Source: Candidatus Eiseniibacteriota bacterium
Lineage (GTDB): Bacteria > Eisenbacteria > RBG-16-71-46 > JABDJR01
DNA length: 64,000 nucleotides
Assembly (NCBI GenBank): GCA_963762255.1
Contig: CAVXKA010000001.1
Coordinates: 1,391,222-1,455,221 of the forward strand
Reading direction: 5' to 3'
In this document: positions 2,533 to 24,169 of the stretch, one piece after another
How the letters are laid out: every line of letters starts with the position of its first letter
Position numbering within the stretch: the first letter of the stretch is position 1
Made by a program: the position numbers and the translations under genes
Notes under the pieces: generated by a model
The model's input: only the letters and a program-made list of their open reading frames with translations
What the model was told of the DNA's origin: nothing
The model's database searches: none

Positions 2533-2544
2533 TGGTAGCGGGGG
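2533..2544 (+). repeat. att core, left copy (duplicated tRNA 3' end)
   Basis: TGGTAGCGGGGG, identical to 35118-35129 (reverse complement of CCCCCGCTACCA). Confidence 0.9.
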
Positions 2545-2647
2545 CGTACTTTGGAGCTATTCATAACATCCTTGGGGATCGCCTCAAGCGAACCGTTGTG
2601 ATCCCCCGCCGGACTTCCCGGTCCGGCCCGCAAAGTACCCCCAGACC

Positions 2648-2749
2648 ATCGTCACCATCGTCACTTTCCCGTAACCGAAAGGATGGTGGCTAGATGCGTA
2701 TGACGATCCTCAATTCCCGTACCGTCACCTACCCGCCGAGGACCGTCAC
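2648..2749. repeat. Iteron-like A(T/C)CGTCAC repeat cluster at the left end
   Basis: ATCGTCAC at 2648 and 2657, CCCGTAAC at 2668, inverted ATGACGAT at 2700, ACCGTCAC at 2721 and 2742. Confidence 0.55.
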
Positions 2750-3581
2750 TCGGCAAGCGAGGAGGCGATCCGGGAAGGGCCTTCAGTCTCGGGTTCACCG
2801 TTGGTGGAACCCCGGCCGCATTGTGCTCATGGCTATTGCTGTCCCAGTCCTCGCCGTTGCGCTCATGCCGGAGGCGGCGCAAGGGATCGTCATCCCGGCC
2901 CCGGTCAGGACGCGGGTGACCTGGTCGACGAGCCGCGCCGACACAACCAAGGTCAAGGTGACGTTCCTCTCGGAGGCCGAGCCGACCACCGGCAAGAACG
3001 GCGACCCGAACGGGATATACATCGCGGACCCCGCATCGAGCGCATCCCAACGCGCGGGGCTCATCTCCTGGGCCGAGTCTATCCCGGACTCCGTCCCGGC
3101 CACGTTCACGCGGGCCACGTTGACGCTGTACAGGCTCAACGCCACCGATGCTCCCGCCGTCTACGACACCCTCGAGATTGCCCCGGTGACCATCACTTGG
3201 AACGAGGCGAAAGCGACCTGGCTCAGCCGCGCAACGGGGAAGATTTGGTCGACGCCGGGCGGAGATGTGGACACCTCCCTTGCAGTGGTCATCCGGGCGG
3301 AGGACATCCCCAACCTCTGCTCCGGTGCTGTCGACTCCGCGGTGGTCCTCGACATCACCCCGATCGTTACTGCTTGGCGCGATCACGCAGTGGGCTCGTT
3401 CGGAGTGCGACTGGCATGGAAGGGCATGGGCGCTCCGGCGATCCGGTTCCACGACAACTCCGCCCCTGAAGCCCTGCGGCCGGCGCTCACCATCGAGACC
3501 ATCACGATCCGACGGCCAAGAGTCATCGGTCTGATCCGGCGGAGGGTCGGGCCCATCGGGGGGTGGGTGCGCCATGGATAG
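2694..3581 (+). CDS. Secreted DNRLRE/CBM96-like domain protein (start may be ATG 2829)
   Basis: Signal-like MAIAVPVLAVALMPEAAQG; motifs ATLTLY, TWNEAKATW, WSTPGGD, LDITPIVTAW, RPALTI. Confidence 0.65.
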   Translation: MRMTILNSRTVTYPPRTVTRQARRRSGKGLQSRVHRWWNPGRIVLMAIAVPVLAVALMPEAAQGIVIPAPVRTRVTWSTSRADTTKVKVTFLSEAEPTTGKNGDPNGIYIADPASSASQRAGLISWAESIPDSVPATFTRATLTLYRLNATDAPAVYDTLEIAPVTITWNEAKATWLSRATGKIWSTPGGDVDTSLAVVIRAEDIPNLCSGAVDSAVVLDITPIVTAWRDHAVGSFGVRLAWKGMGAPAIRFHDNSAPEALRPALTIETITIRRPRVIGLIRRRVGPIGGWVRHG

Positions 3582-3647: not shown

Positions 3648-4142
3648 CTACTTCGCCCGCGCGTCGATGAGGCGCTGCAGGGCGTCGATGTCCCCGCGAG
3701 CGGCGGCGGCCACGAGGGTCCGCACGAACTTGCTGGCCTTCCCCGGCCCTGCGGCCTTGTGGATGGCGTCGCGCTCCTCAGGCGTCAACCTGAACGCGAA
3801 CACCACCAGGTCTTCCGTCGGTTCCGGCGTGGTGCCGTCCGTGGGCGCGTCGGAGGCGGTGGGGGCGACGACCGAGAGGCCCCGCGTCTTCGTGCCCGTG
3901 GGCTCGGGTCCGTCTGCGTCGTGCGCGTGTTGTGCGGCGACCGCCGCCGCCTCGGGGTGCCCCTCGCTCGCCAGGAACTCGGCGACGGTGGGCTTCGGGT
4001 CGGTGGAGGCGTCCACCTTCTGGATGCCGTCCTTGGTGACGAGCAGTTCGACGGTGGCCTCCGTCTCCGCCTGCTCGCGTGCCTTCTTCTCACGGGCCTG
4101 CCGGGCCTGGGTCATCGTCTCGTCGATCCGCTTCTTGCTCAT
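3648..4142 (-). CDS. Hypothetical protein with a C-terminal ribbon-helix-helix-like segment
   Basis: AGGAGG RBS before ATG 4142; LVVFAFRLTPEERDAIHKAAGPGKASKFVRTLV has a beta-helix-helix pattern; divergent from the MTase operon. Confidence 0.55.
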   Translation of the reverse strand: MSKKRIDETMTQARQAREKKAREQAETEATVELLVTKDGIQKVDASTDPKPTVAEFLASEGHPEAAAVAAQHAHDADGPEPTGTKTRGLSVVAPTASDAPTDGTTPEPTEDLVVFAFRLTPEERDAIHKAAGPGKASKFVRTLVAAAARGDIDALQRLIDARAK

Positions 4143-4226
4143 GGTCTCTACCTCCTGTGTGCGGCCGGGCTTCATGTCCGGCGCATCACAAGGAGTCCGC
4201 TGTTGCAGAGAGGAATCCACTGAATA

Positions 4227-5429
4227 ATGCGATCCACCAGAACAACGCCTCACCATCGCAAGCTTCACCTATGGTCGGCCCTGCCTCCGTATTTGGGCGG
4301 GAAACGACGCCTTTGTCCGACGATCTTCCGCGAAGTGGACCGGATCGTGCCAAGGCGCCACTGGCCCGGACTCACGTTCCTGGACGGGTTCCTGGGTGGC
4401 GGGTCGGTCTCTCTGTACGCCAAAGCGCAGGGCTTTCGCGTGGTGGCCACCGACATCGCCGCGCGCTCTATCGCCATTGGGCAAGCCTTGATCGAGAACA
4501 GCAGGGTGCGGCTCACGCACGAGGATGTGCTGCGGCTGGCCAAGGATGACGGCGCGGCACCGGGCCGAGTCGAGTCGGAGTACTCGCCGTCCACGTTCAC
4601 GCAGACCCAAGCGCGGTTCCTGGATCGCGCACTGCGCATCGCGGATGCCACCGAGGACACGGCGAAGGCGGCGCTCATCCGGTTGCTCGCCATCCGGATC
4701 GCTCTCCTGGCCCATCCGATGTCTCAGATCCGCAAGGGAACCATCCACCGGTTGACCACGGGCGAGTACGAGGGCATCACCGAGAGCTGCGTCTACCACT
4801 TCGTCGACGGGCTCCGGCTAACCCGTCCTGCGAAGTTGTGGGAGCTGGCACAGTTGATCAATGGCGGTGTGTTCCAAGGGGAAGGGCGGGTGATTCAGCA
4901 GAGCGTGTTCGAGGCGCTGCCCACGATCGACGCCGCCATACTGTACGGCGATCCGCCATATCCGGGAGTCATGAGCTACGAGAAAATTTATGGCGTCCTC
5001 GACGAGATCCTGGAGGGCAGTTCGCGCCCGACCAGTCCGTTCACCGCCAAGGACGGGGCCGGGATGCTCGACTCGCTCTTCGAGGCCGCCACCCACATCC
5101 CGGTCTGGGTGCTCTCGCTCGGCAACGCCGTGGTCGGCATCGAAGAACTCGAATCCAAGATGGCCCGGCTCGGCCGGCAGACCCGCGCCATCGAGATCGC
5201 TTACCAGCACTTGCCGGCGGTGGCGACCGCCGAGAAGAAGGCGACCAACAAGGAGTTCCTGGTCGTCGGCTGGGACGAAAGCGCTGTGGAGCGCATTGCC
5301 GCTTCCCGAGCAGATGTTCACGTGACCACTCCAGTCAGCAAACAAGCGGCGAAGCGGCGGAAAGCGCTGCCCAAGCGCTCCCGAAGCGCTGTTGCCCTCA
5401 CGTCCGGAAAGGAGAACGCCCGTGGCTGA
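4227..5429 (+). CDS. D12-class N6-adenine DNA methyltransferase
   Basis: PYLGGKRRL, SAM motif FLDGFLGGGSVSL, catalytic YGDPPY. Confidence 0.9.
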   Translation: MRSTRTTPHHRKLHLWSALPPYLGGKRRLCPTIFREVDRIVPRRHWPGLTFLDGFLGGGSVSLYAKAQGFRVVATDIAARSIAIGQALIENSRVRLTHEDVLRLAKDDGAAPGRVESEYSPSTFTQTQARFLDRALRIADATEDTAKAALIRLLAIRIALLAHPMSQIRKGTIHRLTTGEYEGITESCVYHFVDGLRLTRPAKLWELAQLINGGVFQGEGRVIQQSVFEALPTIDAAILYGDPPYPGVMSYEKIYGVLDEILEGSSRPTSPFTAKDGAGMLDSLFEAATHIPVWVLSLGNAVVGIEELESKMARLGRQTRAIEIAYQHLPAVATAEKKATNKEFLVVGWDESAVERIAASRADVHVTTPVSKQAAKRRKALPKRSRSAVALTSGKENARG

Positions 5430-6096
5430 ATCCATGATCGACAAACGAGTCGGTGCCAGGATGATCCCGATCGATGACCTGGTTGCCCATCCGCTCAACA
5501 GCAACCAGATGCCCGAGGACTTGCGCGAGAAGCTCAAGGTTCACATCGGACGAACGGGACGGTATCCATTCTTGGTGGTTCGTCCCCATCCAGACGAACC
5601 CGGCAAGTTCCAGGTGTTGGACGGCCATCACCGCGTTGCCATCCTCAAGGAGTTGGGTCACCGCGAAGCCCGGTGCGACGTGTGGGATGTGGATGACCGG
5701 GAGGCGAAGCTGCTGCTGGCCACCTTGAACCGCCTCCAGGGTCAGGACCAACCCATGCGGCGGGCGCAGTTGATCCACGAGTTGCTCGGCGAGATGAGCG
5801 TGGACGATCTGGCCGGACTGCTGCCCGAGACAGACAAGCAGTTGGAGGAACTCCACGCGCTCTTGGAGTTCCCTGCCGAGGAGATCGCCGCGCTGTTGGA
5901 GGCCGAAGCCGAGGAGGCCGAGAAGGTCTTGCCTCGGGTGATCTCGTTCGTCGTCACCCCCGAGCAGGAGACCTTGATCGAGCAGGCAGTCGAACTCGCC
6001 TCCGACGGCACCCCCGGTCGGGACCGGAAGGCCAAGGGTCTCGCCAACCTCGCCACCCACTTCATGGAGAACCACGATGACCATCCCGCGTCGTAA
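5422..6096 (+). CDS. ParB/Srx N-terminal domain protein
   Basis: IPIDDLVAHPLNSNQM...PFLVVRP...FQVLDGHHRV...LNRLQG; GTG 5422 with AGGAG RBS, overlapping the MTase stop. Confidence 0.85.
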   Translation: MAESMIDKRVGARMIPIDDLVAHPLNSNQMPEDLREKLKVHIGRTGRYPFLVVRPHPDEPGKFQVLDGHHRVAILKELGHREARCDVWDVDDREAKLLLATLNRLQGQDQPMRRAQLIHELLGEMSVDDLAGLLPETDKQLEELHALLEFPAEEIAALLEAEAEEAEKVLPRVISFVVTPEQETLIEQAVELASDGTPGRDRKAKGLANLATHFMENHDDHPAS

Positions 6097-6643
6097 GGTT
6101 CGTGAAGAAGCTCGCCGGCTGTACTTGGCCGGGGAGGCGTCGTCCAACGCCGAGATCGCCGCTCGCCTTCGGGTCAAACCTCACACCATCGGCAAGTGGC
6201 GGCGGGAGGAAGACTGGGATGGACTGCGGCTCAAGATCGACCGCCGCGCCGCGGAACTCTTCGTCGAGAAGATCGCCACCGACAAGGTGACGCTCAACGT
6301 CCGCCATTACCGGTTCTGGGATCTGTTGGCCGCCCGGTTGGGTGAAGACCTCAAGCGCAACACCACGTTCGACATCCGGGATCTGGACCGGGTGGCGGGG
6401 ATACTCGAGCGGGTGCAGAAGGGTCAGCGGTTGGCGAAGGGGCTCTCCACCTCGGGAGACAGCGAGGAGCAGATCCGAGCCAAGGCGGCCGCCGAGCAGC
6501 GGCATCTGGTGGATGTGTTCATCGAGGCGGTAAAAGAGAACGTCCCTGACGAGGAGACCCGGGACCGCATCCGCCGCTCGTTGATGGATGCCATGCCTGA
6601 AGAGGACGCGGTCGTGGATGAGGAACGGAGCGTGGCCGGATGA
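6077..6643 (+). CDS. Putative terminase small subunit (N-terminal HTH, DUF1804/gpP-like)
   Basis: REEARRLYLAG...AEIAARLRVKPHTIGKWRREEDWD HTH followed by a helical region; overlaps the TerL start. Confidence 0.65.
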   Translation: MTIPRRKVREEARRLYLAGEASSNAEIAARLRVKPHTIGKWRREEDWDGLRLKIDRRAAELFVEKIATDKVTLNVRHYRFWDLLAARLGEDLKRNTTFDIRDLDRVAGILERVQKGQRLAKGLSTSGDSEEQIRAKAAAEQRHLVDVFIEAVKENVPDEETRDRIRRSLMDAMPEEDAVVDEERSVAG

Positions 6644-8241
6644 GACGACCTGGGATCTCAGGATCGGGGTATGTTCGCAAGCGATCGATGGAGCTGGGGA
6701 CGCCGGCGACCCGCGCCTTGACCGATCCGCTGGCGGCGTGGGTCGTGAAGAAGATCCGTCTCGAAGGGCGACCGTTCCGGTTCGAGGGGCACGCGTACCT
6801 GCGCGCGATCTTCGACGACACCGCCGCGCACATCATACTCAGCAAGGCCGCGCAGATCGGCGGCACGACCTGGGCCATCCTGCGTAGCTTCCACGCCTGC
6901 CTGCAGGGGCTCAACGTCGGGTATTACTTCCCGACCCAGACCGATGTCTACGACTTCTCCCGGTCGCGGGTGGGACCACTGCTCAAGGACAATCCATTCC
7001 TTGCCGCCAAGCTTCAGGACACCGACACCGTGGGATTGAAGCGGATCGGGGATGCGAACCTCTACTTCCGAGGCATGAAGTCCTCCGTGGGAATGAAGTC
7101 CGTGCCGCTCGACATGTTGGTGTTCGATGAACTCGACGAGGCCACACCGGATGCGCGGGCGCTGGCTTGGGAGCGGATCGCGCACTCCGACTACAAGCGG
7201 GTGATCGAGTTGTCCAACCCATCCCTGCCCGGCTACGGGATCGACGAGCAGTACGAGAAGTCGGACCAGCGGCACTGGACCTTGAAGTGCCCGGCCTGTG
7301 GCGAGTGGACCTGCCTGGAGCGGGAGTTCCCCGCGAAACTCGGCCAGGAGGTCACCGTCATCCGTCAGCGCGACGACGGCACCTACTACCGCGCCTGCCC
7401 CAAGTGTGCCGGCGAACTCGACCTCGACCTGGGCGAGTGGGTCGCCGACTTCCCGGAGCGCGCCATCCACGGCTACCGGGTGAGCCAGCTGTTCTCGGTG
7501 AAGATGGACCCTGGCGAGATCCTTGACGAGTACCGTTGCACGCGGTTCCCGGAGCGGTTCTACAACTTGAAGATCGGTATCCCGTGGGCCGACCTCGAGC
7601 GCCGCCTCGACGTGCAGACCGTGCTCGACCTCTGCCGCACCGGCGAGGCTCCGTTCGGGTTCAACGTCATGGGAGTCGATACCGGCAAGGCCCTTCACGT
7701 CGTCATCCTGCGCACCAACGGGTACACCCTGCGACCGGCCCACATGATCCATGTCCAGGCCTGTCATGAGTTCGCCGAGCTGGACGCCCTCATGAAGCAG
7801 TACCGGGTGCGCAATGTCGTCATCGACGGGCTCCCCGAAACCCACTCCACCCGCGACTTCGCCCGACGCCATCGCGGGGATGTCTTCCTCAACTTCTTCA
7901 ACGAGAGCCAACGGGGGAGCGCCCGGTGGGATCGCTCGGAGCAGACCGTGTGCATCAACCGCACCGAAGCCCTGGATGCCTCGCGAGCGATCGTGCGCGA
8001 CAAGAAGCTGACGCTTCCGCCACGCAGTCCTGAGATCGAGGAGTTTGCCCGGCACATGAGCTGCGATGCCAAGGTGCTCGATGAGGACCCCGACACCGGC
8101 GCCCAGAAGTACCGCTACGTCCGCACCGGACCCGACCACTACTCGCTGGCGTTCACGTATGGGCTCATGGCCTTGGACGCGATGAGCATGCCTGTCAGCC
8201 CCGAGCAACGAGCATGGCTCAGTGGGATGCTCTATGGGTGA
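6640..8241 (+). CDS. Phage terminase large subunit (GpA family)
   Basis: ATPase motif SKAAQIGGTT, YYFPT, Walker B LVFDELDE, ELSNP, CPACG/CPKC Zn finger, RNase H-like MGVDTG...VIDG...PDHY; ORF intact. Confidence 0.9.
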   Translation: MRRPGISGSGYVRKRSMELGTPATRALTDPLAAWVVKKIRLEGRPFRFEGHAYLRAIFDDTAAHIILSKAAQIGGTTWAILRSFHACLQGLNVGYYFPTQTDVYDFSRSRVGPLLKDNPFLAAKLQDTDTVGLKRIGDANLYFRGMKSSVGMKSVPLDMLVFDELDEATPDARALAWERIAHSDYKRVIELSNPSLPGYGIDEQYEKSDQRHWTLKCPACGEWTCLEREFPAKLGQEVTVIRQRDDGTYYRACPKCAGELDLDLGEWVADFPERAIHGYRVSQLFSVKMDPGEILDEYRCTRFPERFYNLKIGIPWADLERRLDVQTVLDLCRTGEAPFGFNVMGVDTGKALHVVILRTNGYTLRPAHMIHVQACHEFAELDALMKQYRVRNVVIDGLPETHSTRDFARRHRGDVFLNFFNESQRGSARWDRSEQTVCINRTEALDASRAIVRDKKLTLPPRSPEIEEFARHMSCDAKVLDEDPDTGAQKYRYVRTGPDHYSLAFTYGLMALDAMSMPVSPEQRAWLSGMLYG

Positions 8242-8284
8242 CCCAGATCCGTCGACCGGTGACGCGTTCCCGTCGGTGTCTTGG

Positions 8285-8430
8285 AGCCCCTCCGGACCCC
8301 TCTGGAGGGGCTGAAATCGCTCCCAAACGGGCTCCGAGGGATCAAATTGGTTCCCGACGGGCCGGTTTGGGACGAAATTCGGTCCCTCGGAGGCCCAAAA
8401 CCCCCAGAAAAGCGGCATGGTTTTGGGGGT
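8285..8430. repeat. Cluster of inverted repeats directly after terL
   Basis: AGCCCCTCCGG/CTGGAGGGGCT (8285-8312); CTCCGAGGGA/TCCCTCGGAG (8332-8341, 8383-8392); CCAAAACC/GGTTTTGG (8395-8402, 8419-8426). Confidence 0.6.
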
Positions 8431-8763
8431 TCTGCCCAGATCTGCCGTTCTCGGTGGTGAGGTCAAAACGCTGCAACCCCTTGAAATCAAGAGACTAAGG
8501 GGAACACTCCGTCACCTGCGAGCTGGCCGAGGCGTGAAATATCCGGCCGAAACCTGCCACTTATCTGCCCTTGCCGCGCCCCGGACGAGCCCAGAATGCC
8601 GCTCGTCTGCCCCTTGCCACATGTCGTCTTCTCACAGAAAGGCGAACTGTTCGATCTGGCTCCTAGCCTCCTTGCGCCTAGACATCTCGATCACTCATCT
8701 ATTGCGTTGGAACAACTGACGTGTTCTTCTGAGATGCAGGATCTTCCTACTTCACGAGTGACT

Positions 8764-9243
8764 ATGAAGAAACCGAATGGCGAGATGGGTGGCCACGGGG
8801 CGACGGGCTGTCCGACGACGTGTACCCTTGAGCCTCTGAAGTCAAGGACTGAGATCCTGACCAACTACTCGCGCTGCAGCACCCACCGTCGCATATTCAC
8901 AAATCAGCATGAAGAAGTAATCTGCCCACGTTGTTCGCGGTTGCCCCGTGAATACTACCAGCTTGATCGTGGACTGATGTTCAGCTGCGAACGCGAACAC
9001 CTGTGGGACCCATGCACCAAGGATCTTCGGCCAACTCTTGTCCGACGCATGAAGTGCGATGTCTGTGAATATGTCTCCGATTCATGTCCCGAATGTGAGT
9101 CGATGGCCATTGCTTGGTGGCGCGTCAGCACATCTGTGCGCGGCAAAACCAGCGAGGAACTTGCGTTCTTTGAGTGCTTTCAAGGTCACCGGTGGATCGG
9201 TTGTCCCGATTGCGGGGAGACACGAGACTTCGAGTGCTACTAG
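8764..9243 (+). CDS. Cys/His-rich multi-zinc-ribbon hypothetical protein (track start 8596)
   Basis: Eight paired ligand motifs: CPTTC, CSTH, CPRC, CEREH, CDVC, CPEC, CFQGH, CPDC. Confidence 0.55.
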   Translation: MKKPNGEMGGHGATGCPTTCTLEPLKSRTEILTNYSRCSTHRRIFTNQHEEVICPRCSRLPREYYQLDRGLMFSCEREHLWDPCTKDLRPTLVRRMKCDVCEYVSDSCPECESMAIAWWRVSTSVRGKTSEELAFFECFQGHRWIGCPDCGETRDFECY

Positions 9244-9427
9244 AATAACTGCATGGCTGCGGAGAAGCTGATCGGATGACAATACCTGCATGCCTTGACT
9301 TGCTTGTAGCTCCTGACTGGCATGCCACCCCGATCTTTGGTCCGGCGGTGGGCGGCATCCTCGATGCGACGGGTATCGCTGATGCACTCGAAGTGGCCGC
9401 CAGCCGCACGAACGAGACGCGGGTGGC

Positions 9428-12400
9428 CTAGCGCCTCTTGGCCCGCTGCTTGACGGGACGCGGTCGCGACGCTGTCGCCACCGCCGCGCGCTCGCCTGCG
9501 ATCTGGAATGCGCCCGGCCAGCCACCGTGCTGCTCGATGACCTCGTCGATCTTCTGCATCAGACGAATAGTCTCAGCGAGGGCGACGACAATCTTCTGAT
9601 AGTGGGCGATCTCTGCCTTGGAAAGCGTGCGGCCTTTGCGGTCCTTGAGCCACTTCTCGCACACTTGGTAGCCGCCGACGTGGAAGTTCCAAACGTCCCC
9701 GGGCACGCCGCAGAACCCAATCGTGCCGGGCGTGGCGGGCTGGCCCTTCTTCGTCGCGGTGGCATCGAGCCAGACAGTGCCCTCCGACCAGCCGACCCGG
9801 CCGACTTCGGGGTTCTTCGGACCTGAGTAGTTAGTGATGAGGTGATCGAGCTTCGGTGAGTCCATCAGGTGTAGGGCCACGAGTGTGGAGCCGAGTTGGA
9901 TGAGCTCGCGGTTCAGCGCAGGAGACGAAGGCCGAGGCACCCTCGCGTAGTCCCGTTGGAGCTCCCCTTGAAACCGGCGGCGATACTCTGGCGAGAAGAG
10001 CACCGCGTAGATCGTGTAGAGCATCTCCTCCGCTGTGTGGACATCGAGGCGACTTGTCCAATCCGCATACACAGCAGGGGCAATGTTTGCATGCCCTCTA
10101 TCTCCGGAGGCTGTCTTGAACAACGGCGTGTCATCTTGAACTCCAGTTAGGTACAGCGGGAACACCTGCGTGTTGCGATCGTGAGTAGCGGCTTTGTATT
10201 CCACAAGCCCTCGGCAAACGAGCACGTTGTCATACGGTTTCCCGGTTACGCGACGGGTTGAAAGCAGAGCAAGGCTGCCAGCGAGCAGATGCTTCATGAC
10301 CTCTTGGCGCGGTTCGCCAATGATCAACGGGTGATAGACGACGTACCGCATATCGAATGGGCGATAGAGGATCGGGCGAATACACGACTCAGCATCTTTC
10401 AGCGTCGTCTCAGCACGTGCTCGATCGAAGTCAAAATGCGAGCTTGAACACAAACTGAACCGCTCTCCCAGACTTCGCCGCGACTCGGCCTTGTCGAAGA
10501 AAATCTCTAGGTTGTTGCGGAGCTCGGCCCGGGTGAACGCAATCGCCAGTGAGTCGTGCCGGGTCGCGAGGGCTGCGCCGTTGAATGGAAGTGGTCTTCC
10601 GCTCCGGATTCCGCCTGCAAAAACGTCCGGAAGTGAAAGCCACGACTCCCATGCAGCTGAGGTGTCAGTGAAGGTGGGCTGGAAGTAGCGCTGTGGGGCG
10701 ATGGGAGACAGTCTCTCGAATGCAACCGTTCCCAATCTGCTGGACGCCAGCCACAGAGCCTTCTCATCACGAGATCCTCGCACAGCTGCAAGGTCCACGA
10801 GCCGCTCAGTCTTGCCAATCGTACTTCCCAAGAAGATGGCTACCCCTTGCTGAATATCGAAGACGTTCTGGTCGGCCGCTGTTGCGTCCACTCGACGGGA
10901 ATTGCCTCCAAGATCCGTTAGTCGAATGACCCGGTAACACCCCATCAGGTCGGCGCGCATGTCCCGGAATAGGGGACCGTCTAGGTAGCTGTTGTCCGTG
11001 ATCATTCCTAAGACATAGCTCCCCGCACTCTCCAAGATTGTGGAAGCGAGGCACATAAACTTGACGTAATCGTTGGATAGAGCTTGCCGTTGGATCTCTT
11101 CGGTCTTGATAGTCGTCTTGTAACGCTCCATCAAAGAGTCGATCCATTCACCCTGATTCTGGGAAAGCTTCGCGTAGGGCGGATTGCCGATCACCACAGT
11201 AAACCGCTGCTTCCGCTTGATCTCGTTGACCGCTTGCGCCTCGTGGGCGAGCGCCGGCAGAAAGTCTAAGGTAAGTTGTCTGCTGCTCGCAGGCTCCAGC
11301 GCGTTGGTCAGGTATACCCGCGCCCGCTCGTCGCTACCGAAACGGTAGCCCGTCTCGTAAAGCTTCAACCCAATTTTGAGATGCGCGATGGCGTAGGGGG
11401 CCATCAAGAGCTCGTAGCCGTGCAGGCGCGGTAGGAGGTGCCGGGGCACGTACTCGTTCCACAAGGCCTCAATCTTCTTATCGCTTTGGCCATGGGCGTT
11501 CCAGTTGGCGAGCAGAGTCTTGTGGATGAGGTCGATGGCTTCGACTAGGAACGTACCCGTGCCGGTGGCGGGATCGAGGATCTGGACGAAGGCATGGTCG
11601 GGGGAAACGCCCTCGGGGATCTTGATGTCCTTGTGGCGCCTAGCCATCTCCCCCCAGGTAGTGATATCGGCGAGTCCGTCGGTGAGGCCGAACTCGCTTC
11701 GCAGTAGCTCGTCCACCGAGCGCACGATGTAAGAGACCACCGGCCGCGGTGTGTAGAAGACGCCGCGTTGCATCCGCTTCTTAGCATCATATTCCTTGAG
11801 GAAGAGCTCGTAGAAGTGGATGACCGGGTCTTCCTGCGGGTTTCGGTCGCCGAAGTCGCGGACGACAGCTTCCATGTGAGTGTTCGGGTCGTCGAGCAGC
11901 TCAACAACCTCGTTCACACCCAGCTCGTCGAAGTCGATGCCCGGCCCACCTGCCTTGCCCCGCCGTCCGCCAACGTGGAGGAAGGTCTCCATCAGCTCCT
12001 TGAGGAACGGATTGGTCCGCATGTGGCCCGCGAAATCGTCTACCGTCTTCTTGTGGGGGTCTGCGATGCGGGCCGAGAGCAGGCCGTAGGCAATGGTCTG
12101 GGCATACATGTCAGCGAAGCCGCCGTCGTCGAGGTCGTGGATCAACGCCTCCTGGAAAGCCTTCCTCAGCTTGGTGACGGGGCCGTGCTCGGTCTCAATG
12201 GCGAGGACGGTGTGGATGCGGTCGCGGATCCTCCTTGCCAGCTTCGCCAACTCCACGGCCAGGGCCTTCGAGGTCTTGATGACCTCATCGGGCCGTAGAG
12301 TGAAGGCCGATCGCCACTTCTCGCGCCACCGGTCGATGTTGGATTCGTCCTCTGGCCACGAAAGTTTCGTGGCAAGCTCGGTGGCTACGCCATCGAGATG

Positions 12401-12880
12401 AAGCGCGGTATCGCGATCGTTCCACCCGAGCACCTTCAGGATCGGGAGGTCGGCCTTGGCTCTGTCCTGCGAGAAATGCGCGAAGCTAATCTGGCGCTCA
12501 TCGCCCTCGCCGTAATTGGAGACGAAGAGCAGGTCGTCGGCTGCCCAGGCGGTGCGCTCGGCGCTGTTGGCCGAGGCGCGTTTCTTGAGTGCAACCTGGC
12601 TTAGAATGCGGCGCAGCGCGACGATGGGAAGCTTCTTCGGTTCGAACTTGATGAAGAAGATGCCCCACGGCTGGCGGGGCGAGAGCGGGCGCAGCCGTTT
12701 GATCTCTTGGATCTTGGCGGCGCTCGCTGCGTCGATACCCAGCTCCTCTGGCGTGTACTCGAAGGTCAGCTCCTCGAAGCTCTCCTGACTGATTGGCCAG
12801 CCAATCTCGTCGCGTAAGTAGGCGATGAGTTGGTCAAACCGCTTGATTTTCGCGAGTACAGCGCGGTGGTCGGTCGGCAT
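9428..12880 (-). CDS. Type ISP/IIG-like N6-adenine methyltransferase with C-terminal specificity domain
   Basis: GVFYTPRPVV, ILDPATGTGTFL, VIGNPPY; C-terminal WNFHVGGYQVCEKWLKDRKGR typical of the type ISP C-terminal domain; no helicase motifs within this ORF. Confidence 0.85.
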   Translation of the reverse strand: MPTDHRAVLAKIKRFDQLIAYLRDEIGWPISQESFEELTFEYTPEELGIDAASAAKIQEIKRLRPLSPRQPWGIFFIKFEPKKLPIVALRRILSQVALKKRASANSAERTAWAADDLLFVSNYGEGDERQISFAHFSQDRAKADLPILKVLGWNDRDTALHLDGVATELATKLSWPEDESNIDRWREKWRSAFTLRPDEVIKTSKALAVELAKLARRIRDRIHTVLAIETEHGPVTKLRKAFQEALIHDLDDGGFADMYAQTIAYGLLSARIADPHKKTVDDFAGHMRTNPFLKELMETFLHVGGRRGKAGGPGIDFDELGVNEVVELLDDPNTHMEAVVRDFGDRNPQEDPVIHFYELFLKEYDAKKRMQRGVFYTPRPVVSYIVRSVDELLRSEFGLTDGLADITTWGEMARRHKDIKIPEGVSPDHAFVQILDPATGTGTFLVEAIDLIHKTLLANWNAHGQSDKKIEALWNEYVPRHLLPRLHGYELLMAPYAIAHLKIGLKLYETGYRFGSDERARVYLTNALEPASSRQLTLDFLPALAHEAQAVNEIKRKQRFTVVIGNPPYAKLSQNQGEWIDSLMERYKTTIKTEEIQRQALSNDYVKFMCLASTILESAGSYVLGMITDNSYLDGPLFRDMRADLMGCYRVIRLTDLGGNSRRVDATAADQNVFDIQQGVAIFLGSTIGKTERLVDLAAVRGSRDEKALWLASSRLGTVAFERLSPIAPQRYFQPTFTDTSAAWESWLSLPDVFAGGIRSGRPLPFNGAALATRHDSLAIAFTRAELRNNLEIFFDKAESRRSLGERFSLCSSSHFDFDRARAETTLKDAESCIRPILYRPFDMRYVVYHPLIIGEPRQEVMKHLLAGSLALLSTRRVTGKPYDNVLVCRGLVEYKAATHDRNTQVFPLYLTGVQDDTPLFKTASGDRGHANIAPAVYADWTSRLDVHTAEEMLYTIYAVLFSPEYRRRFQGELQRDYARVPRPSSPALNRELIQLGSTLVALHLMDSPKLDHLITNYSGPKNPEVGRVGWSEGTVWLDATATKKGQPATPGTIGFCGVPGDVWNFHVGGYQVCEKWLKDRKGRTLSKAEIAHYQKIVVALAETIRLMQKIDEVIEQHGGWPGAFQIAGERAAVATASRPRPVKQRAKRR

Positions 12881-12884
12881 CTGT

Positions 12885-15800
12885 TCAGCCCTCGTTGAGT
12901 TCCATCCAACACTTGAGCGCCGGTTTCACGCCGACAGGGGCGTCGACGCGCTTCAGGTAGGTGTTCTTGATGTGCTTCTCGATCCTCCCTCGGAGCTCGA
13001 CAAGGGTCAGCTCATCTGTGGTGCACTTTCGCGGGGTGTCGGGGTTGGAGCGGATGCCGGCGACGATCTCACCCGGCTCTTCGAGGATGGCGTCGCGGTC
13101 AAGGTCGTAGAGGTACCAGCGCGTCGTGCCGGCCGCTTCGGTGAACTCGCCTGCTTCCTTGTCGAGTGCGGGGAGCGCGTAACAGAAGAAGACCCCACGA
13201 GCGCCCTTGGTCGGGCGTTTCCGCCCGCTGAAGGTGGCGCCGGGCAGGCGCTTGAGACGCGCCTCCAGCTCGGGGTCGGCCTGGAGCAACGACTGGTACT
13301 CGAGGTGCATGTCCTCAACTGCTGTCTTGGTGCCTTCGTAGGCATGGTTGAACTCCCTCAGGGCGTCGTAGTCATCTTCTGGCGTAAGCAGCTTCTTGCC
13401 TTCGATGCCGAGGGTCTTGGAGATCAGTAGGGTCTTCTGCGTGACCTTGGTGTAGAGAGTCAGGATCACATTCAGATCCTCGGGCGGCAGGAAGTTCCAG
13501 AAGGTGACCTTGCCGCGGGACGGCGCAAGCTCCGGGTGATCGTCGAGGAGCCGCTTCTCGACCTCGGGATTCATGCGCCGGTCCACGCGGCCGATGCGCT
13601 GCATCAGACGCACGGGGTTCCAATGAATGTCGTAGTTGATCATCCGCGAGGCGTCCTGGAGGTTTAGGCCTTCGGAAAGGACATCGGTAGAGATTAGGAT
13701 GCGGATCTCCCCGCGACCTTTCTCAGCAAGCGCCGCGGCAGAAATGCCGTTGTAGTAAGGGGAGAAGCACTGGATCACGTCGGCCCGGTTTCGCTTGGAG
13801 GCACTGTCGACCTGGGCGACACCATCGATGCCAGCCCCATCAAGCTGGCCCTTCAGGTAGCGGGCGGTGTCGGCGAACTCGGTGAAGATGAGAACCTTCT
13901 GACCAGCCAGTTCCTTGCTCTTGAGCAGGCGAATGAGCTTCTGCAACTTGTCGTCATGCTTGGGTTCGAACCTCCGGGCTTCCTCGAGAAAATGGACTAG
14001 TTGAGCCAAGTCCCGGAAGGTCTCAGTCAGCATTGCCGGGATGTCGTACTCCTCGCGGTTGAGCCTCTCTACGGTCGCAAGTATTTCCTGAGGAACAACG
14101 TCCTCGTCCTCGGACTCCTCTTCATCGCTGCCCCAGAGTTCCATCTGACGATGCACCGCATAGCCGAGAATCTCCGCGTTGTCGATCTTCCACTGCTCGA
14201 GCTTCCTCCTTTCGATGTCGGTCTCGCTGTGGATTATCAAGAAGGCGAGCAGCTTCTGTAGTAGCCGATCACAGGACAACTCAAAGGCGGTGACGGAGCT
14301 CTCGAACCTCTTAAGAAAGTTGGTTCGGATCAGGCCCACGACCTGCTTCTGCCGGTTCTGCTCGAAGGAGTCAATATCCTTGTCCGGCCCCTTGTACCAG
14401 TAGAGCGGGTAGTACATGGCCAGGGTGAAGAGCGGGTGCTTTCGGGTGAAGGCGTTCTCGAACATGTCTAGCAGCCTGCCGTAGGTCTTGCGGATTGAGT
14501 ACGCAGCGACCTGAGGTGGCCGGCGCTCAGGGAAGGCAGTGGTCCTTCCGGACTCTCGGATCTGGCTCTCCTGCGCGTAGGCGCGACTGCGCTGGACGAC
14601 GAGGTGCCGGAAAATCTCATCCTTGGCCAGGATCTCCTGGGCCTCGGTCATGTTCTCAGCAACGTCGGTGAGGTCGTGCCCGAGGATCTGCCTGAGCGCC
14701 TTCTCCATGTTGTTGAAGCGCGCACTCAGGTTGTTCACTCCGAGGGTGCGGCCGAAGTACGCCTCGTCGCGCCGCGTGAAGAGTTCCGCCATGTGGCGGA
14801 AGTCGCTCAGACGGTTATTGATCGGTGTGGCGGTGAGCATGAAGAGCGTCTTGGGCCGCGCCGCGCAGTCGAGCAGGTCGTAGAGTTGGTAGTACCGGGA
14901 GGGGTCAGTCCCTTCGTCCGGGTCGCCCCGGCGTCCCGGATTGCGGAAGTGATGAGCCTCGTCGATGATCACGACATCGGCTAGATCCGCGATCCGCCGG
15001 AATCGCTCGGGGAAGTCCCCCTTGCGGCCGAGGTCTGTGTGGCTGAAGACCGCGAGGTTGCTGAAGTCGGCGTTCCCCCCGACGCCCCCGATGTGCGAGA
15101 GCCACTCGCGCAGGTGCGGCTCCCACACGCCCTCCTTGGTCGCCTTGGGAGCAAAGAGCACCACGCGCTTGCCTTCGTGCAGCACCAGCCGCTCGATCAG
15201 CATCAAGCCCACGAAGGTCTTGCCGAGACCGACACCGTCGCAAAGGAAGGCACCGCCGTGCTGGCGCGCGATCTTCATCAGTGCCCAGTAGGCCTCCTTC
15301 TGATAGCGATCGAGCCTGGGAAACATCTTTGAGCGGGTCTCGTCCCACTCGGTTGCTGTCAGCTCGTGCCCTCGGAAGTACTCCTGGAGCGCCTTGGCGT
15401 AGATGTCGAACGGGGTATAGAGCTGGGTGTGGCGCGAAATGGTGTCGATGACGGCGTCGGTCACCTCGCTGGCATCGATCCAGTGTGCCTCGAACCACTC
15501 TTGGAGCTGGGCGACCTCGCGAGCACTCTGGACCTGAATGTTGAGCTCGATGTTCTTGGTGAGGCCGGGAGCGGTGAAGTTGCTCGAGCCCACCAACGCC
15601 TGCGAACCGACCACTTCGAGCTTGGCGTGCGTGATATAGGCTTTCGCATGGAACTTCTCACGGTCGTAAACGCGGCACTCGATCTGCCTCGATTGGAGTG
15701 CCTTGAGGATCGCCGGAACGCCGTGGAGGAAGGGGTTGGTTTCCTTGTCGGCCTCGATGCTCCCGTCGAGGATCTCTACGGCGCGCGAGCGCACGGCATC

Positions 15801-16034
15801 GAGGAGCGCCTTGCGGGTGCGATGCGTCATCTCGGCGCCCATCAGAATCCGGATCTTCTCCAGCGGCTGCCACTGTCCGTCGAGGGCAAGCAGCGCACCG
15901 ATTTCGAAGTAGCCCGTCGCGATATCGAACCCCTTGGCGATGCCGGACCACTCCTTGAGGTAGCGGAGCCCGGTCCACCCGGAGACGCTGTTGTCGACGA
16001 TGAAAAGGTCGCGGCCTTTGGAGTCAGTGGTCAT
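12885..16034 (-). CDS. PLD-nuclease / SNF2-like helicase fusion
   Basis: FHAKAYI...GSSNFT (HKD-type PLD motif), DGVGLGKT, IIDEAHHFRN, LTATPINN, STDVLSEGLNLQDA, NPVRLMQRIGRVDR. Confidence 0.9.
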   Translation of the reverse strand: MTTDSKGRDLFIVDNSVSGWTGLRYLKEWSGIAKGFDIATGYFEIGALLALDGQWQPLEKIRILMGAEMTHRTRKALLDAVRSRAVEILDGSIEADKETNPFLHGVPAILKALQSRQIECRVYDREKFHAKAYITHAKLEVVGSQALVGSSNFTAPGLTKNIELNIQVQSAREVAQLQEWFEAHWIDASEVTDAVIDTISRHTQLYTPFDIYAKALQEYFRGHELTATEWDETRSKMFPRLDRYQKEAYWALMKIARQHGGAFLCDGVGLGKTFVGLMLIERLVLHEGKRVVLFAPKATKEGVWEPHLREWLSHIGGVGGNADFSNLAVFSHTDLGRKGDFPERFRRIADLADVVIIDEAHHFRNPGRRGDPDEGTDPSRYYQLYDLLDCAARPKTLFMLTATPINNRLSDFRHMAELFTRRDEAYFGRTLGVNNLSARFNNMEKALRQILGHDLTDVAENMTEAQEILAKDEIFRHLVVQRSRAYAQESQIRESGRTTAFPERRPPQVAAYSIRKTYGRLLDMFENAFTRKHPLFTLAMYYPLYWYKGPDKDIDSFEQNRQKQVVGLIRTNFLKRFESSVTAFELSCDRLLQKLLAFLIIHSETDIERRKLEQWKIDNAEILGYAVHRQMELWGSDEEESEDEDVVPQEILATVERLNREEYDIPAMLTETFRDLAQLVHFLEEARRFEPKHDDKLQKLIRLLKSKELAGQKVLIFTEFADTARYLKGQLDGAGIDGVAQVDSASKRNRADVIQCFSPYYNGISAAALAEKGRGEIRILISTDVLSEGLNLQDASRMINYDIHWNPVRLMQRIGRVDRRMNPEVEKRLLDDHPELAPSRGKVTFWNFLPPEDLNVILTLYTKVTQKTLLISKTLGIEGKKLLTPEDDYDALREFNHAYEGTKTAVEDMHLEYQSLLQADPELEARLKRLPGATFSGRKRPTKGARGVFFCYALPALDKEAGEFTEAAGTTRWYLYDLDRDAILEEPGEIVAGIRSNPDTPRKCTTDELTLVELRGRIEKHIKNTYLKRVDAPVGVKPALKCWMELNEG

Positions 16035-16172
16035 CGTGATCCCTCATCGAAGTGGGGCCTCGCCGGGGACGCCCAACATATGACTCGGCGGCGGGAGCCA
16101 CCACACCGGATGCGCCATCTACCTCGCAGGCTCCGGGGCTGACGGGGCGATGTCGGCAGTGGCTGAACAACA

Positions 16173-16784
16173 TCACCGACCCAGAGGAGCCGCACGTCCA
16201 TGACGACGGGCTGGTCTCGCAATCGACGGAACTACCTTGATGAAGACAAGGTAGAGAAGAACGACGACGACAATAATGACCGCGACCCACTTGTCGATGG
16301 TGGCGTGGTGGAACAGGCCCATTAGCGCAGCGATGAAGAAAGCGACTGGGAGCGCCTTTGTTGGCAGTGTGACGCGGAGATCGGTCCCGGGGCCAGCGTT
16401 CTGGGCGAGCCGCTGCCAGACTATGATCAGCATCCAGTAGGCTGATAGCGTTGCCCAGAAGAGAGTGTGGAGAGGCCACTTGTCCATCCACGAGATGTTC
16501 GCGCCAGAGCCGAAGAAGCTATCTTTGGGCGTCAGAAACGTGAGTGCTAACAGGAGGAGCACGAAGTTCGTAAGATCGATTAACTTCATTCCAAGAGAGT
16601 AGAGTGTCTTTTCGACCGGATGGTCTTCGATCAGGTTTGAGGTGTAGACCGTATCATTGAACACTAGAAGCGCCACGACAGCAGCGAGGCATATGCCGGT
16701 TGCGTCACGCGCGGCGAAGGCCATAAAGAACTGGCGCATCGCGGCAATGAACGCAATGCCGAATATGATGTTATAGAACGTCAT
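16173..16784 (-). CDS. Hypothetical multi-pass membrane protein
   Basis: About six hydrophobic segments; GGAGG upstream; lower GC than flanks. Confidence 0.65.
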   Translation of the reverse strand: MTFYNIIFGIAFIAAMRQFFMAFAARDATGICLAAVVALLVFNDTVYTSNLIEDHPVEKTLYSLGMKLIDLTNFVLLLLALTFLTPKDSFFGSGANISWMDKWPLHTLFWATLSAYWMLIIVWQRLAQNAGPGTDLRVTLPTKALPVAFFIAALMGLFHHATIDKWVAVIIVVVVLLYLVFIKVVPSIARPARRHGRAAPLGR

Positions 16785-16951
16785 CTTCTGGTGGCCTCCC
16801 TATCCTATCTCTTGCCGGCGGGGCCTCGTGGGTTGTGGTCCGAACTTGCGAGGCGGGGGGAACGCCTTGCGCCCGTGGAAATTACTCGGGTTGCGGGGGG
16901 TGAGTCAAGCGAAGCGGGCGCTTCGCCCCGTGGGCCGGTTAGGCGCGCTGG

Positions 16952-17536
16952 TCAGCAGACGAGATCCCGCACCCTGCCAAACAGCTCCTCATCGTCGACG
17001 TTGGTGTAGATGGTGGTTGTGAGCGGCGACGCGTGCCTCGCGAACCGTTGGGCGAGGAAGAGGTCGTGGGACATCCGGTAGACAGAAGTTATTGCGGCGT
17101 GTCGAAGTGCATGGAACCCGTAGAAGCGGTCGAACCCCGCGCGCTCCTGCCAGGTCTTGAAGGTCATCTGGACGCGGCGTTTGGAGATGCGGTGGCCGGA
17201 CTGATTGCAGAAGAGGGGCGACGAAGGCGTCAACGACTCACCCGACCTCACCTTGTACCCCCAGGACCTCACGAGCTTCGGCCCCAGGGCGTCCGGCAGG
17301 AACACGTCGCCGGCGCGGCCGCCCTTGGCGATCTCTTTGCGCAGTCGAATCCGTGAGCGCGGCCGACCGTCCGACGTGAACACATCGCCCACGTTCAGGC
17401 CGACGATCTCCGACAAGCGAAGTCCGGTTCCCAGCGCCAGCGAAAAGATCAGGTGGTCGCGGGGATGCGAGGCCGAAACCGCAAGCAGGGATTGCTGTTC
17501 AGAGCGGGTCAGGGTCGCGGGACTCAGGTAGGGCAT
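16952..17536 (-). CDS. Small tyrosine recombinase (catalytic domain only)
   Basis: R (GLRLSE), K (AKGGR), HALRH, FARH, Y (TTTIY) all present in 194 aa; GGAGG RBS. Confidence 0.9.
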   Translation of the reverse strand: MPYLSPATLTRSEQQSLLAVSASHPRDHLIFSLALGTGLRLSEIVGLNVGDVFTSDGRPRSRIRLRKEIAKGGRAGDVFLPDALGPKLVRSWGYKVRSGESLTPSSPLFCNQSGHRISKRRVQMTFKTWQERAGFDRFYGFHALRHAAITSVYRMSHDLFLAQRFARHASPLTTTIYTNVDDEELFGRVRDLVC

Positions 17537-17560
17537 CGGTTACCTCCGAGGACATTGGGC

Positions 17561-17593
17561 AGCCGAGACGCGACGGGGTCAAGGGGAACCGGG
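17561..17593. repeat. 33-bp promoter-like repeat, copy 1
   Basis: AGCCGAGACGCGACGGGGTCAAGGGGAACCGGG; 31/33 identical to 20160-20192; minus strand carries TTGACC-N17-CCCAAT. Confidence 0.75.
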
Positions 17594-17704
17594 GGGTTGA
17601 TGACTCCATCCCGCACTTGATTCACACCAAGCGCCGGAGTAGCTTGAACCTCTCGGCACGCTTCAAGTCTGCTGTTCACGGGTGAGAGACCGCGTTCCTC
17701 AACG

Positions 17705-18994: not shown

Positions 18995-18996
18995 CT

Positions 18997-19053
18997 CGGC
19001 TCCAGCGCGTCTGGCAGGAACACGTCTTCGGCTCGGCCGCCCTTGGCGATCTC
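18997..19053 (-). pseudogene. Internal fragment of a paralogous tyrosine recombinase
   Basis: Encodes EIAKGGRAEDVFLPDALEP versus EIAKGGRAGDVFLPDALGP in the intact gene (17284-17335). Confidence 0.8.
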
Positions 19054-19130
19054 GCAGATCTGCGCCCGCCGACAGCCCGACCCGTCCTCACGGTGGCGAG
19101 ACCTGGGGGGGAGACCCGGAAAAGTCTTAC

Positions 19131-19343
19131 TTAGTCCCCCTCATCCTCTGCGTCGTGCTGCTCCGGAACACCCTTGACGAGTCTGCTGGGGGGGGCTTCC
19201 TGGATGATCCTCGGAACATCATCTGGGGAGGGCTTGACACCCTCCTCAACGTAGTTGATGAGATCAGGGTCCTGGGGCGGTATCACGATGAGCGGGGGCA
19301 CTGGTCTTGGAGTTGAGGGCTTCTCGCCCTGGTCTTTGTTCAT
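19131..19343 (-). CDS. Small Pro/acid-rich protein (70 aa)
   Basis: MNKDQGEKPSTPRPVPPLIVIPPQDPDLINYVEEG...; GGAGA upstream; overlaps the tail of the upstream membrane gene. Confidence 0.5.
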   Translation of the reverse strand: MNKDQGEKPSTPRPVPPLIVIPPQDPDLINYVEEGVKPSPDDVPRIIQEAPPSRLVKGVPEQHDAEDEGD

Positions 19344-24133: not shown

Positions 24134-24169
24134 ATCCGCAAGGCACGGCTCTTCAGGAACTAGAGGAAG

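Follow-up and report, generated by a model that had tools for sequence, protein, structure and literature searches.

A predicted terminase cassette without detectable virion genes in an integrative island of an uncultured bacterium

The genome of an uncultured Candidatus Eiseniibacteriota bacterium holds an integrated island that encodes, at positions 4227–8241 of the window (the whole analysed stretch of 64,000 nucleotides), a D12 adenine methyltransferase (MTase), two proteins resembling ParB and TerS, and a gpA-type large terminase (TerL) of full length. Neither the island nor the host genome yielded a match to the portal and capsid families searched. The cassette is under purifying selection, and the island is a member of an old, single-origin, widespread and apparently undescribed family of integrative mobile elements; no such class was found in the published literature. 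Our preferred reading, to which we give a probability of roughly one half, is that the element is a helper-dependent satellite bringing its own terminase.

The island and its integration site

The island extends from about 2546 to 35130 (32.6 kb) and is flanked by a 12-bp tRNA remnant and a tRNA-Met gene. Its boundaries and its replication and integration genes are as follows.

2533..2546, attL, left island boundary, remnant of the tRNA-Met 3' end (TGGTAGCGGGGGCG), read from the sequence
31032..33458, plus strand, primase(-helicase) replication protein (phrog_6088 2e-20, phrog_239, PRK07078 1e-25)
33455..35161, plus strand, large serine recombinase (Resolvase, Recombinase and Zn_ribbon_recom domains)
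35118..35194, minus strand, tRNA-Met (CAT), attR, right island boundary (ARAGORN)

The size of 32.6 kb given in the original prediction is correct, the island being delimited by the 12-mer at 2533–2544 and the tRNA-Met at 35118–35194 (minus strand). Within the first 40 kb searched, the 12-mer of the tRNA-Met 3' end (TGGTAGCGGGGG) has its only second occurrence at 2533–2544, and the stop codon of the serine recombinase falls within the tRNA gene. The same enolase/tRNA-Met site is also occupied in the relative L039. In an empty-site comparison the gene of the left flank was found only in the relative G047, there without an adjoining tRNA-Met or enolase, and no empty site was demonstrable. Besides the packaging cassette the island contains the primase, the large serine recombinase and defence cargo, and all of its ORFs without assignment are 300 aa or shorter.

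The packaging cassette and the genes to its left

2694..3581, plus strand, DNRLRE/CBM96-like beta-rich protein of 295 aa (NF033679 2e-12, above cut-off)
3648..4268 (likely true start near 4142), minus strand, divergent small regulator-like gene with a conserved C-terminal domain of ~55 aa (LVVFAFRLTPEERDAIHKAAGP..ASKF)
4227..5429, plus strand, D12-class N6-adenine DNA methyltransferase (PF02086 2e-12, phrog_27806 4e-16)
5392..6096 (probable start 5434), plus strand, ParB/Srx-fold protein (phrog_723 1e-13, TIGR00180 5e-8)
6077..6643, plus strand, putative TerS-like small terminase subunit (N-terminal HTH profile matches, AF2 model, position)
6640..8241, plus strand, TerL, gpA-type large terminase (phrog_675 5e-105, PF05876 (GpA_ATPase) 3e-23)

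The four-gene operon of the original prediction was recovered in full, its genes overlapping or nearly abutting: terS and terL share a 4-bp overlap (ATGA), parB and terS overlap by 20 bp, and MTase and parB either overlap by 38 bp or are separated by a 4-bp gap, according to the parB start chosen. The motifs FLGGGS and DPPY are readable in the MTase (dN/dS 0.10–0.26), while the ParB-like protein has a DGHHR motif and is 60–88% identical across 45+ loci (dN/dS 0.13). Matches of the TerS-like protein are confined to its N-terminal HTH (~50 aa; Terminase_5, DUF1804, PF10668, NF040601 and phrog_1889/2606), and its AF2 model (pLDDT 71) shows an HTH and a long helical hairpin, for which a Foldseek search of the PDB gave no significant match, the best TerS-like entry being 2ao9 at E~2. 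The N-terminal HTH, the position of the gene and the predicted architecture together suggest a small terminase subunit. A TerS-like gene, 52–75% identical, lies upstream of every TerL of the clade described below, and terS has a dN/dS of 0.15.

The alignment of TerL to phrog_675 spans residues 32–521. Common to this protein and phage TerLs are the ATPase residues of Walker A (K69/Q72/G74), Walker B (VFDELDE) and the coupling motif (SNP192-194), the nuclease-part residues D347, D396, D446 and H500, and also H353 and a Cys4 ribbon; the earlier reading of the ATPase and nuclease motifs as intact is borne out by catalytic residues that are invariant against the phage relatives. No solved structure was matched when the TerL profile was searched against PDB sequences, and PDB sequence searches with the island's unknown ORFs gave nothing useful. 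In three pairs the dN/dS of terL was 0.137, 0.054 and 0.053 (dS 0.6–1.8), which is strong purifying selection (0.05–0.14); relaxed selection, envisaged in the original prediction as a possible outcome, was not seen.

To the left, ORF 2694–3581 is part of the cassette common to a second copy in the genome (88% aa identity, dN/dS 0.25) but conservation does not extend to the family at large; only five homologs were found. Its AF2 model is all-beta with a pLDDT of 42 and unusable for a fold search, and its identity is therefore taken from the DNRLRE domain match. The minus-strand gene at 3648–4268, which Pfam does not recognise, looks by eye like a ribbon-helix-helix regulator, and its C-terminal domain is 47–75% identical to ORFs of the minus strand that lie before the MTase in the relatives L006, L007, L039, L042, L125, L126 and L128. 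A plus-strand ORF of 217 aa (3574–4227), considered as a conserved gene, is probably spurious, given its dN/dS of 0.62 and the family-wide conservation on the minus strand (3648–4268).

Cassette exchange and the cargo region

The cassette recurs at 80–85% nucleotide identity in a second, otherwise unrelated island of this genome, whose primase (DUF3987) has no relation to that of the first and whose serine recombinase is a distant one. The homology of the two islands stops exactly at the terL stop codon, and copy 2 has a frameshift in its MTase; a search for boundaries in the flanks of copy 2 found no tRNA and no long flanking repeat. The cassette is exchanged between unrelated backbones. Downstream of it, the present island continues with cargo.

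8596-9243, Cys-rich ORF, cargo (Pfam scan)
9428-12880, minus strand, type ISP-like MTase/specificity protein, cargo (Pfam)
12885-16034, minus strand, PLD-SNF2 helicase, cargo (Pfam)
16173-16784, minus strand, ORF, cargo (Pfam scan)
16952..17536, minus strand, mini tyrosine recombinase of 194 aa, catalytic domain only (PF00589 1e-23)
17537..30665, further cargo block with an FGE-sulfatase-domain protein, a beta-propeller, two HNH proteins and a DnaJ-TonB_C protein
22659-23516, PD-(D/E)XK-like ORF, cargo (homolog motif)
26523-30665, NACHT STAND protein, EruA/HyoA-like, cargo

The mini tyrosine recombinase lies downstream of terL and convergent with it, and is 62–70% identical in ~20 loci. The interval between the two genes is 45–130 bp in 12 relatives and is here (8242..16951) filled by cargo; the site of cargo insertion is marked by this small recombinase. 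A 41-bp repeat is present at 17553–17593 and 20152–20192. ORF 22659–23516 was tried as a capsid candidate and rejected, since a D..ExK motif invariant in its 422 homologs identifies it as a PD-(D/E)XK-type nuclease.

Search for virion genes

The original prediction held that the element has no portal or capsid gene and allowed for one hidden among its unknown ORFs. Searches of the island ORFs against Pfam, PHROGs and NCBIfam gave no portal or capsid match, among the unknown ORFs as elsewhere, and as far as sequence profiles can tell the element appears to lack both. In the larger elements of the family a wholly new shell protein might escape such profiles. The host genome (93.6% complete, 3 contigs) has no match to PF05065, PF04860, PF05136, phrog_267, phrog_156 or phrog_12, with working controls, and no candidate helper prophage, and copy 2 has no match to capsid, protease, portal or head-tail adaptor/connector.

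The relatives tell the same story. No virion genes lie within ±10 kb in 19 related contexts from several phyla; 35 phage protein cluster profiles found no match in the six-frame ORFs of 15 loci. A tblastn search also found nothing when structural proteins from the nearest phages served as queries. The prior expectation that relatives would carry no portal or capsid after terL is upheld in these 19 contexts of the TerL clade, and as a positive control the more distant TerLs of phages (35–46% identity) do have portal and major head genes behind them. In the minimal relative, L039, there is no space for a portal and a capsid. Two loci were considered as complete phages and rejected: the array downstream in L051 is a type I RM system with DarTG, and the genes after terL in L042, which have no virion matches, are taken as host genes because they lie downstream of a tRNA-His. 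Among 20 other carrier genomes the capsid family PF05065 occurs in five, never on the terL contig, and is missing from 15.

A widespread family of single origin

Relatives were gathered by a survey of the phylum and contig look-ups, a contig search with a single protein having given only two loci. Homologs number more than 700, with a close set at 63–77% identity that includes MAGs labelled Eisenbacteria, Zixibacteria, Planctomycetota and Thermoanaerobaculia; occurrence is patchy and multicopy, 21 of 206 genomes of the phylum being carriers, fragments included. Fourteen TerLs without virion genes group in a single clade (support 100/99), monophyletic with short branches and nested among phage TerLs. 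TerL is unusually conserved across phyla, which would need explaining if the enzyme has to dock on the portals of diverse helpers.

The elements measure ~10 to 33 kb, and satellite-like regulators (HTH_17, HTH+ImmA and cI/Cro-like pairs) and primases are present among the relatives. Their common plan is a divergent regulator-like gene before the packaging operon and, for a large subset of the elements, a mini tyrosine recombinase behind it in convergent orientation, with defence cargo accumulating downstream of terL. Interchangeable modules serve integration (serine or tyrosine recombinase) and replication (several primase/helicase types). This variability, the second cassette copy, the minus-strand regulator-like gene and the mini tyrosine recombinase at the cargo site had all been missing from the original prediction.

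Comparison with known elements

The elements resemble PICIs and SaPIs in site-specific integration, integrase, regulators, primase/helicase, defence cargo, presumed helper dependence and the lack of virion genes, and in a packaging gene, TerS, which in those satellites redirects packaging; indeed, they have the integrase, regulator and primase-replicase, without virion genes, of a PICI-type module. In the SatelliteFinder definitions terL separates cfPICIs from PICIs, the latter being without terL (PMC10085698). The present family always has TerL together with MTase and ParB, and so departs from the 'no large terminase' of PICIs; it also often uses a large serine recombinase and is found in uncultured phyla, in elements of up to 33 kb. 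Like cfPICIs, the elements encode both TerS and TerL, but cfPICIs also encode capsid, protease, portal and head-tail adaptor/connector (PMC10085698), all of which are missing from the element, from copy 2 and from the 19 contexts. P4-like satellites, characterised by Psu, Sid, Delta, an alpha-type primase and a cos site, differ: no Psu, Sid or Delta family was found in Pfam and PHROGs scans of the island ORFs.

With gpA-type prophages of Caudoviricetes the island shares a full-length gpA-type TerL nested among phage TerLs, yet in those phages terL leads straight into portal and head genes, and in this clade it never does; profile searches found none of the portal, major capsid protein and tail/lysis genes of a functional prophage. 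Nor is there a chromosomal head-tail structural cluster of the GTA kind, none of the six capsid and portal families searched having been matched anywhere in the genome. Another likeness is NitKor-E1, an integrated thaumarchaeal element in which TerS and TerL are the sole Caudovirales-like genes, accompanied by a PD-(D/E)XK nuclease, an integrase and a toxin-antitoxin pair (Krupovic et al. 2019, PMC6563490). That single archaeal cryptic integrated element was interpreted as a relic, and terminases were stated not to have been found in non-viral mobile elements (PMC6563490), whereas here we see a large bacterial family under purifying selection.

Mode of life

If the element is a helper-dependent satellite, infection by a helper phage would lead it to excise by its own recombinase and replicate from its own origin; its TerS would recognise a pac or cos site on the element DNA, and its TerL would cut that DNA and pump it through the portal into procapsids made by the helper. 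The MTase may pre-methylate the element DNA against restriction in the next host, and the element would ferry anti-phage defence genes inside the capsids of another phage. Helper dependence and packaging are what we infer. The original prediction had named a satellite with a whole terminase among its options; we favour it, on the strength of inference. Speaking against it are the range of element sizes, the unusual conservation of TerL, the confinement of the TerS matches to the N-terminal HTH and the failure to find a candidate helper prophage in this genome. More tentatively, and at somewhat less than even odds, we suggest that this cross-phylum capsid-less lineage, with a complete terminase (TerS and TerL, with MTase and ParB-like protein) loading its own DNA into exogenous helper procapsids, represents a new satellite class between PICI and cfPICI, in which the mini tyrosine recombinase beside terL forms an integron-like platform for the capture of defence cassettes at that very position.

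The terminase might instead have been repurposed to act without a capsid, as a methylation-aware, ATP-driven DNA-cutting module directed against the packaging or replication of invading phages, or in processing the element's own replication concatemers. The failure to find capsid or portal in the genome, the defence cargo that always accompanies the module and the pairing of an MTase with a nuclease, reminiscent of modification and restriction, would all fit, and the cross-phylum conservation of TerL is easier to explain without a co-evolving portal partner. We know of no precedent for such a function, however, and consider it unlikely: motor ATPase and nuclease keep every residue exactly as packaging phages have it, the SNP coupling motif among them, TerS is retained and translationally tightly coupled, and the layout of integrase, regulator and primase is that of a satellite.

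That head and tail genes reside in another locus or element, as in a split or multipartite virus or a GTA-like system, or are too divergent to be seen, seems to us quite improbable. In its favour, completeness of the genome (3 contigs) stands at 93.6%, novel folds can escape profile searches and five of the 20 other carriers encode an HK97 capsid elsewhere than on the terL contig; against it stand the six portal/capsid families without a match in the element's own genome (controls working), the 15 carriers without PF05065 and the empty tblastn search with structural proteins of the nearest phages. Least credible, and very improbable indeed, is a decayed prophage in which defence genes replaced the structural block and left the terminase as a functionless remnant, a reading that we reject at the level of the family; a prophage with its structural block replaced by defence cargo had also been offered by the original prediction. 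Fragmented and stop-containing terL copies in some genomes, the frameshifted MTase of copy 2 and the reading of the single archaeal TerS and TerL element as a relic (PMC6563490) point that way, but decay is hard to reconcile with a terL dN/dS of 0.05–0.14 at dS 0.6–1.8, a monophyletic virion-less clade with short branches, the same architecture in 19 contexts from several phyla and a cassette swapped between unrelated backbones.

Implications

To our knowledge, satellites described so far either have no TerL or have TerL together with capsid and portal. A satellite that supplies the motor and steals the shell would be a new hijacking strategy. A terminase counts as a hallmark of the complete tailed virus, and if our reading holds, virus-prediction tools and catalogues of the IMG/VR type would mislabel such islands as proviruses. 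The family would then also be a major vehicle of defence systems in uncultured phyla, among them Eisenbacteria, Zixibacteria, Acidobacteriota and Planctomycetota.

Packaging cassette and terminase

The four-gene packaging module predicted at 4227-8241 holds up in both the ORF listing and the family scans.

Genes of the MTase-ParB-TerS-TerL cassette, in order
First gene: D12-class adenine MTase (PF02086 2e-12; phrog_27806)
Second gene: ParB/Srx-fold protein (phrog_723 1e-13; TIGR00180)
Third gene: TerS-like protein, 188 aa (N-terminal HTH against Terminase_5, DUF1804, PF10668, NF040601, phrog_1889/2606)
Fourth gene, 6640-8241: TerL, 533 aa (phrog_675 5e-105 end to end; GpA_ATPase 3e-23)

The operon is as tightly coupled as originally described, TerS and TerL overlapping in an ATGA and ParB and TerS by 20 bp, with an MTase-ParB gap of 4 bp provided ParB starts at M15. 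The TerL ATPase and nuclease motifs are likewise intact: in an alignment of 49 TerLs, including bona fide phage enzymes, residues of Walker A (K69, Q72, G74), R110, R144, Walker B (VFDELDE), the coupling motif (SNP192-194) and the nuclease (D347, H353, D396, D446, H500) are shared by this TerL with the phage enzymes at 92-100%. So is a Cys4 zinc-ribbon (C217, C220, C253, C256; TerL residues 217-256), which is inserted in the ATPase domain and is invariant in virion-less and phage relatives alike. The assignment of the 188-aa protein as TerS is weaker; its AF2 model (pLDDT 71) places a long helical hairpin behind the HTH, and Foldseek returned no significant match for it.

Anatomy of the island

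The reading frame of the large serine recombinase ends inside tRNA-Met, the 3' 12-mer of which, TGGTAGCGGGGG, has one further occurrence in 40 kb, at 2533-2544, defining an element of ~32.6 kb and bearing out the size first proposed. The GC content of the cargo region is 0.58-0.63, compared with 0.66 for the genome.

Further features of the island
3648-4268 (minus): conserved gene upstream of the MTase
16952-17536 (minus): tyrosine recombinase, 194 aa
33455-35161: large serine recombinase
35118-35194 (minus): tRNA-Met
Cargo: type ISP-like MTase/specificity gene and PLD-SNF2 helicase
Further cargo: FGE-sulfatase-domain protein; two HNH proteins; DnaJ-TonB_C protein; NACHT STAND protein resembling EruA/HyoA
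Replication: primase

In line with the original prediction that portal, capsid and tail genes are absent, family scans of the island ORFs gave no match to portal, capsid, protease or tail families, and no ORF left without an assignment exceeds 300 aa. Two capsid-sized candidates were rejected: ORF 2694-3581 is a DNRLRE/CBM96-like beta protein (structure model poor), and ORF 22659-23516 belongs to a widespread PD-(D/E)XK-like family (~256 aa, >420 metagenomic homologs, no Pfam domain), a member of which also lies downstream of terL in the related locus L006. The invariant residues of this family (D141..E154xK156) suggest an uncharacterised PD-(D/E)XK nuclease. The ORF directly 3' of terL (8596-9243, 215 aa) is Cys-rich, contains numerous CxxC pairs, and has no family match and no homolog in related loci.

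Two recurrent genes had been overlooked. Over its C-terminal ~55 aa (LVVFAFRLT..ER..IHKAAGP..ASKF) the 3648-4268 product shares 47-75% identity with small ORFs on the minus strand of 7 relatives; it has no Pfam match and by eye resembles a ribbon-helix-helix regulator, its gene pointing away from the operon. Since the conserved gene is on the minus strand, the plus-strand 217-aa ORF at 3574-4227 (dN/dS 0.62) is probably spurious. The other gene, the 194-aa tyrosine recombinase, has counterparts of 62-70% identity in many relatives, lying tail-to-tail with terL and only 45-130 bp beyond it in 12 loci and 0.2-8.7 kb away in 8 further loci, with genes intervening where the gap exceeds ~1 kb; the type ISP-like pair occupies this gap in the window. 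A recombinase adjoining terL, with the gap gene-filled in some loci, marks the terL 3' end as the cargo insertion site. This fits the behaviour of metagenome contigs (L045, L046, L047, L050) and of several short contigs from genomes, which repeatedly stop 0-750 bp past the terL stop, as would be expected if strains differ at the cargo site and assemblies break there.

Within 16952-21650 the recombinase gene is accompanied by a diverged fragment of itself (18996-19053) and by two repeats, one of 41 bp (17553-17593 and 20152-20192) and one of ~170 bp (21421-21591). All are present in many copies in a small number of further islands in this genome (contig C1, 602-634 kb and 467 kb; contig C2, 1144-1160 kb and 1427-1436 kb), and look like cargo-unit arrays built by the mini tyrosine recombinase.

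A second cassette and selection

The genome encodes a TerL paralogue (C1:480915-482486) with 89% protein identity. Window positions 2862-8241 and C1:477233-482489 share 80-85% DNA identity, the match stopping exactly at the terL stop. The second island (~463-493 kb of C1; loci L003-L005), low in GC like the first, has a tyrosine integrase and DUF3987 helicase upstream, and directly after terL a serine recombinase only distantly related to that of the window, then a SocA/Panacea antitoxin and other cargo; it also carries a 496-aa cytidine-deaminase-domain protein and an Eco57I-like MTase, and gave no virion matches. Its cassette MTase is frameshifted. The same cassette in unrelated backbones indicates that it is either transferred or retained as a unit.

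Nei-Gojobori dN/dS between the two copies
terL: 0.137 (dS 0.62)
terS: 0.15
parB: 0.13
MTase: 0.10-0.26

Two more terL pairs, among relatives, gave 0.054 and 0.053, so that terL is under strong purifying selection in all three pairs.

Distribution and origin

Metagenomic homologs of TerL number >700; the best 120 show 63-77% identity, and the named sources among these are MAGs labelled Eisenbacteria, Zixibacteria, Planctomycetota and Thermoanaerobaculia; a genome-contig search adds an Eisenbacteria and an Acidobacteriota MAG, and cultured phages reach only ~25% identity. Carriers in the window's phylum number 21 of 206 genomes, often with multiple copies and some fragments. This is the distribution of a mobile element and not of vertical inheritance.

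All 19 independent loci inspected, up to 10 kb each side, are built alike. A serine or tyrosine recombinase is accompanied by HTH regulators (HTH_17, HTH+ImmA or a cI/Cro-like pair), by a primase/helicase that differs in type between loci (Prim-Pol/D5_N, DUF3987, DUF3854, DnaG-like) and by the MTase-ParB-TerS-TerL cassette, beyond which lies either variable cargo or a tRNA at which the element ends. Among the cargo are type I and type III RM systems, DarTG, HEPN, NACHT, an HD protein and an FtsH-like AAA protein. Virion genes are consistently absent from these stretches (0/19), and L039, a minimal relative that occupies the same tRNA-Met/enolase site, has no ORFs large enough for portal and capsid together. 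A few relatives have terL as the final gene of the element: in L042 (12115-12211) it abuts tRNA-His, and in L127 it is followed, from 2600 onward, by genes resembling a host two-component system. In these relatives terL would thus lie at the attachment site or beside it.

IMG/VR TerL matches split into 10 loci at 64-68% identity and a distant group at 46% or less, in which long co-directional gene arrays follow terL. As positive controls, PHROGs finds portals (phrog_156, 2662/12, 113, 332) after the distant-group terL, as well as the major head protein phrog_267. Profiles of 35 protein clusters from these distant phages found no match in six-frame ORFs of 15 close-clade loci, including the whole island and the second copy. 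A maximum-likelihood tree unites the 14 virion-less TerLs in one short-branched clade (100/99), nested among phage TerLs; the virion genes were therefore lost once, long ago, and the clade then diversified under constraint.

Putative packaging strategy

A fully competent motor and nuclease, together with TerS, are retained under strong purifying selection, and packaging of the element's own DNA into capsids of an infecting helper phage is the most economical reading. It favours, by inference, the satellite with a whole terminase of the original prediction. The same retained terminase might instead be repurposed for capsid-free interference or concatemer processing, which we consider unlikely. 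A source of virion genes in a locus that escaped detection is rather less probable: the genome (completeness 93.6%) gave no match to PF05065, PF04860, PF05136, phrog_267, phrog_156 or phrog_12, with controls positive each time, tblastn with structural proteins of related phages found none, and a PF05065 capsid occurs in only 5 of 20 other carrier genomes, never on the terL contig. The genome searches likewise point to no resident helper. A plain prophage relic is very improbable, since selection, monophyly and recurrent architecture contradict it.

SatelliteFinder counts terL among the cfPICI-specific core genes separating cfPICI from PICI, and cfPICI also carry capsid, portal and connectors (PMC10085698). 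No class that combines TerS and TerL yet lacks a capsid appears in the reviews and other satellite papers searched. The nearest published case is NitKor-E1, in which the authors noted a terminase not previously seen in non-viral MGEs (PMC6563490); it is a single archaeal element read as a relic. Placement of the element with phage satellites or hitchers, as a variant, is partly supported. Its gene content points to a hitcher, with integrase, switch, replication, packaging specificity and defence cargo and no means of building particles; an infecting helper phage would supply the capsids, and the element's own terminase would load them with element DNA.
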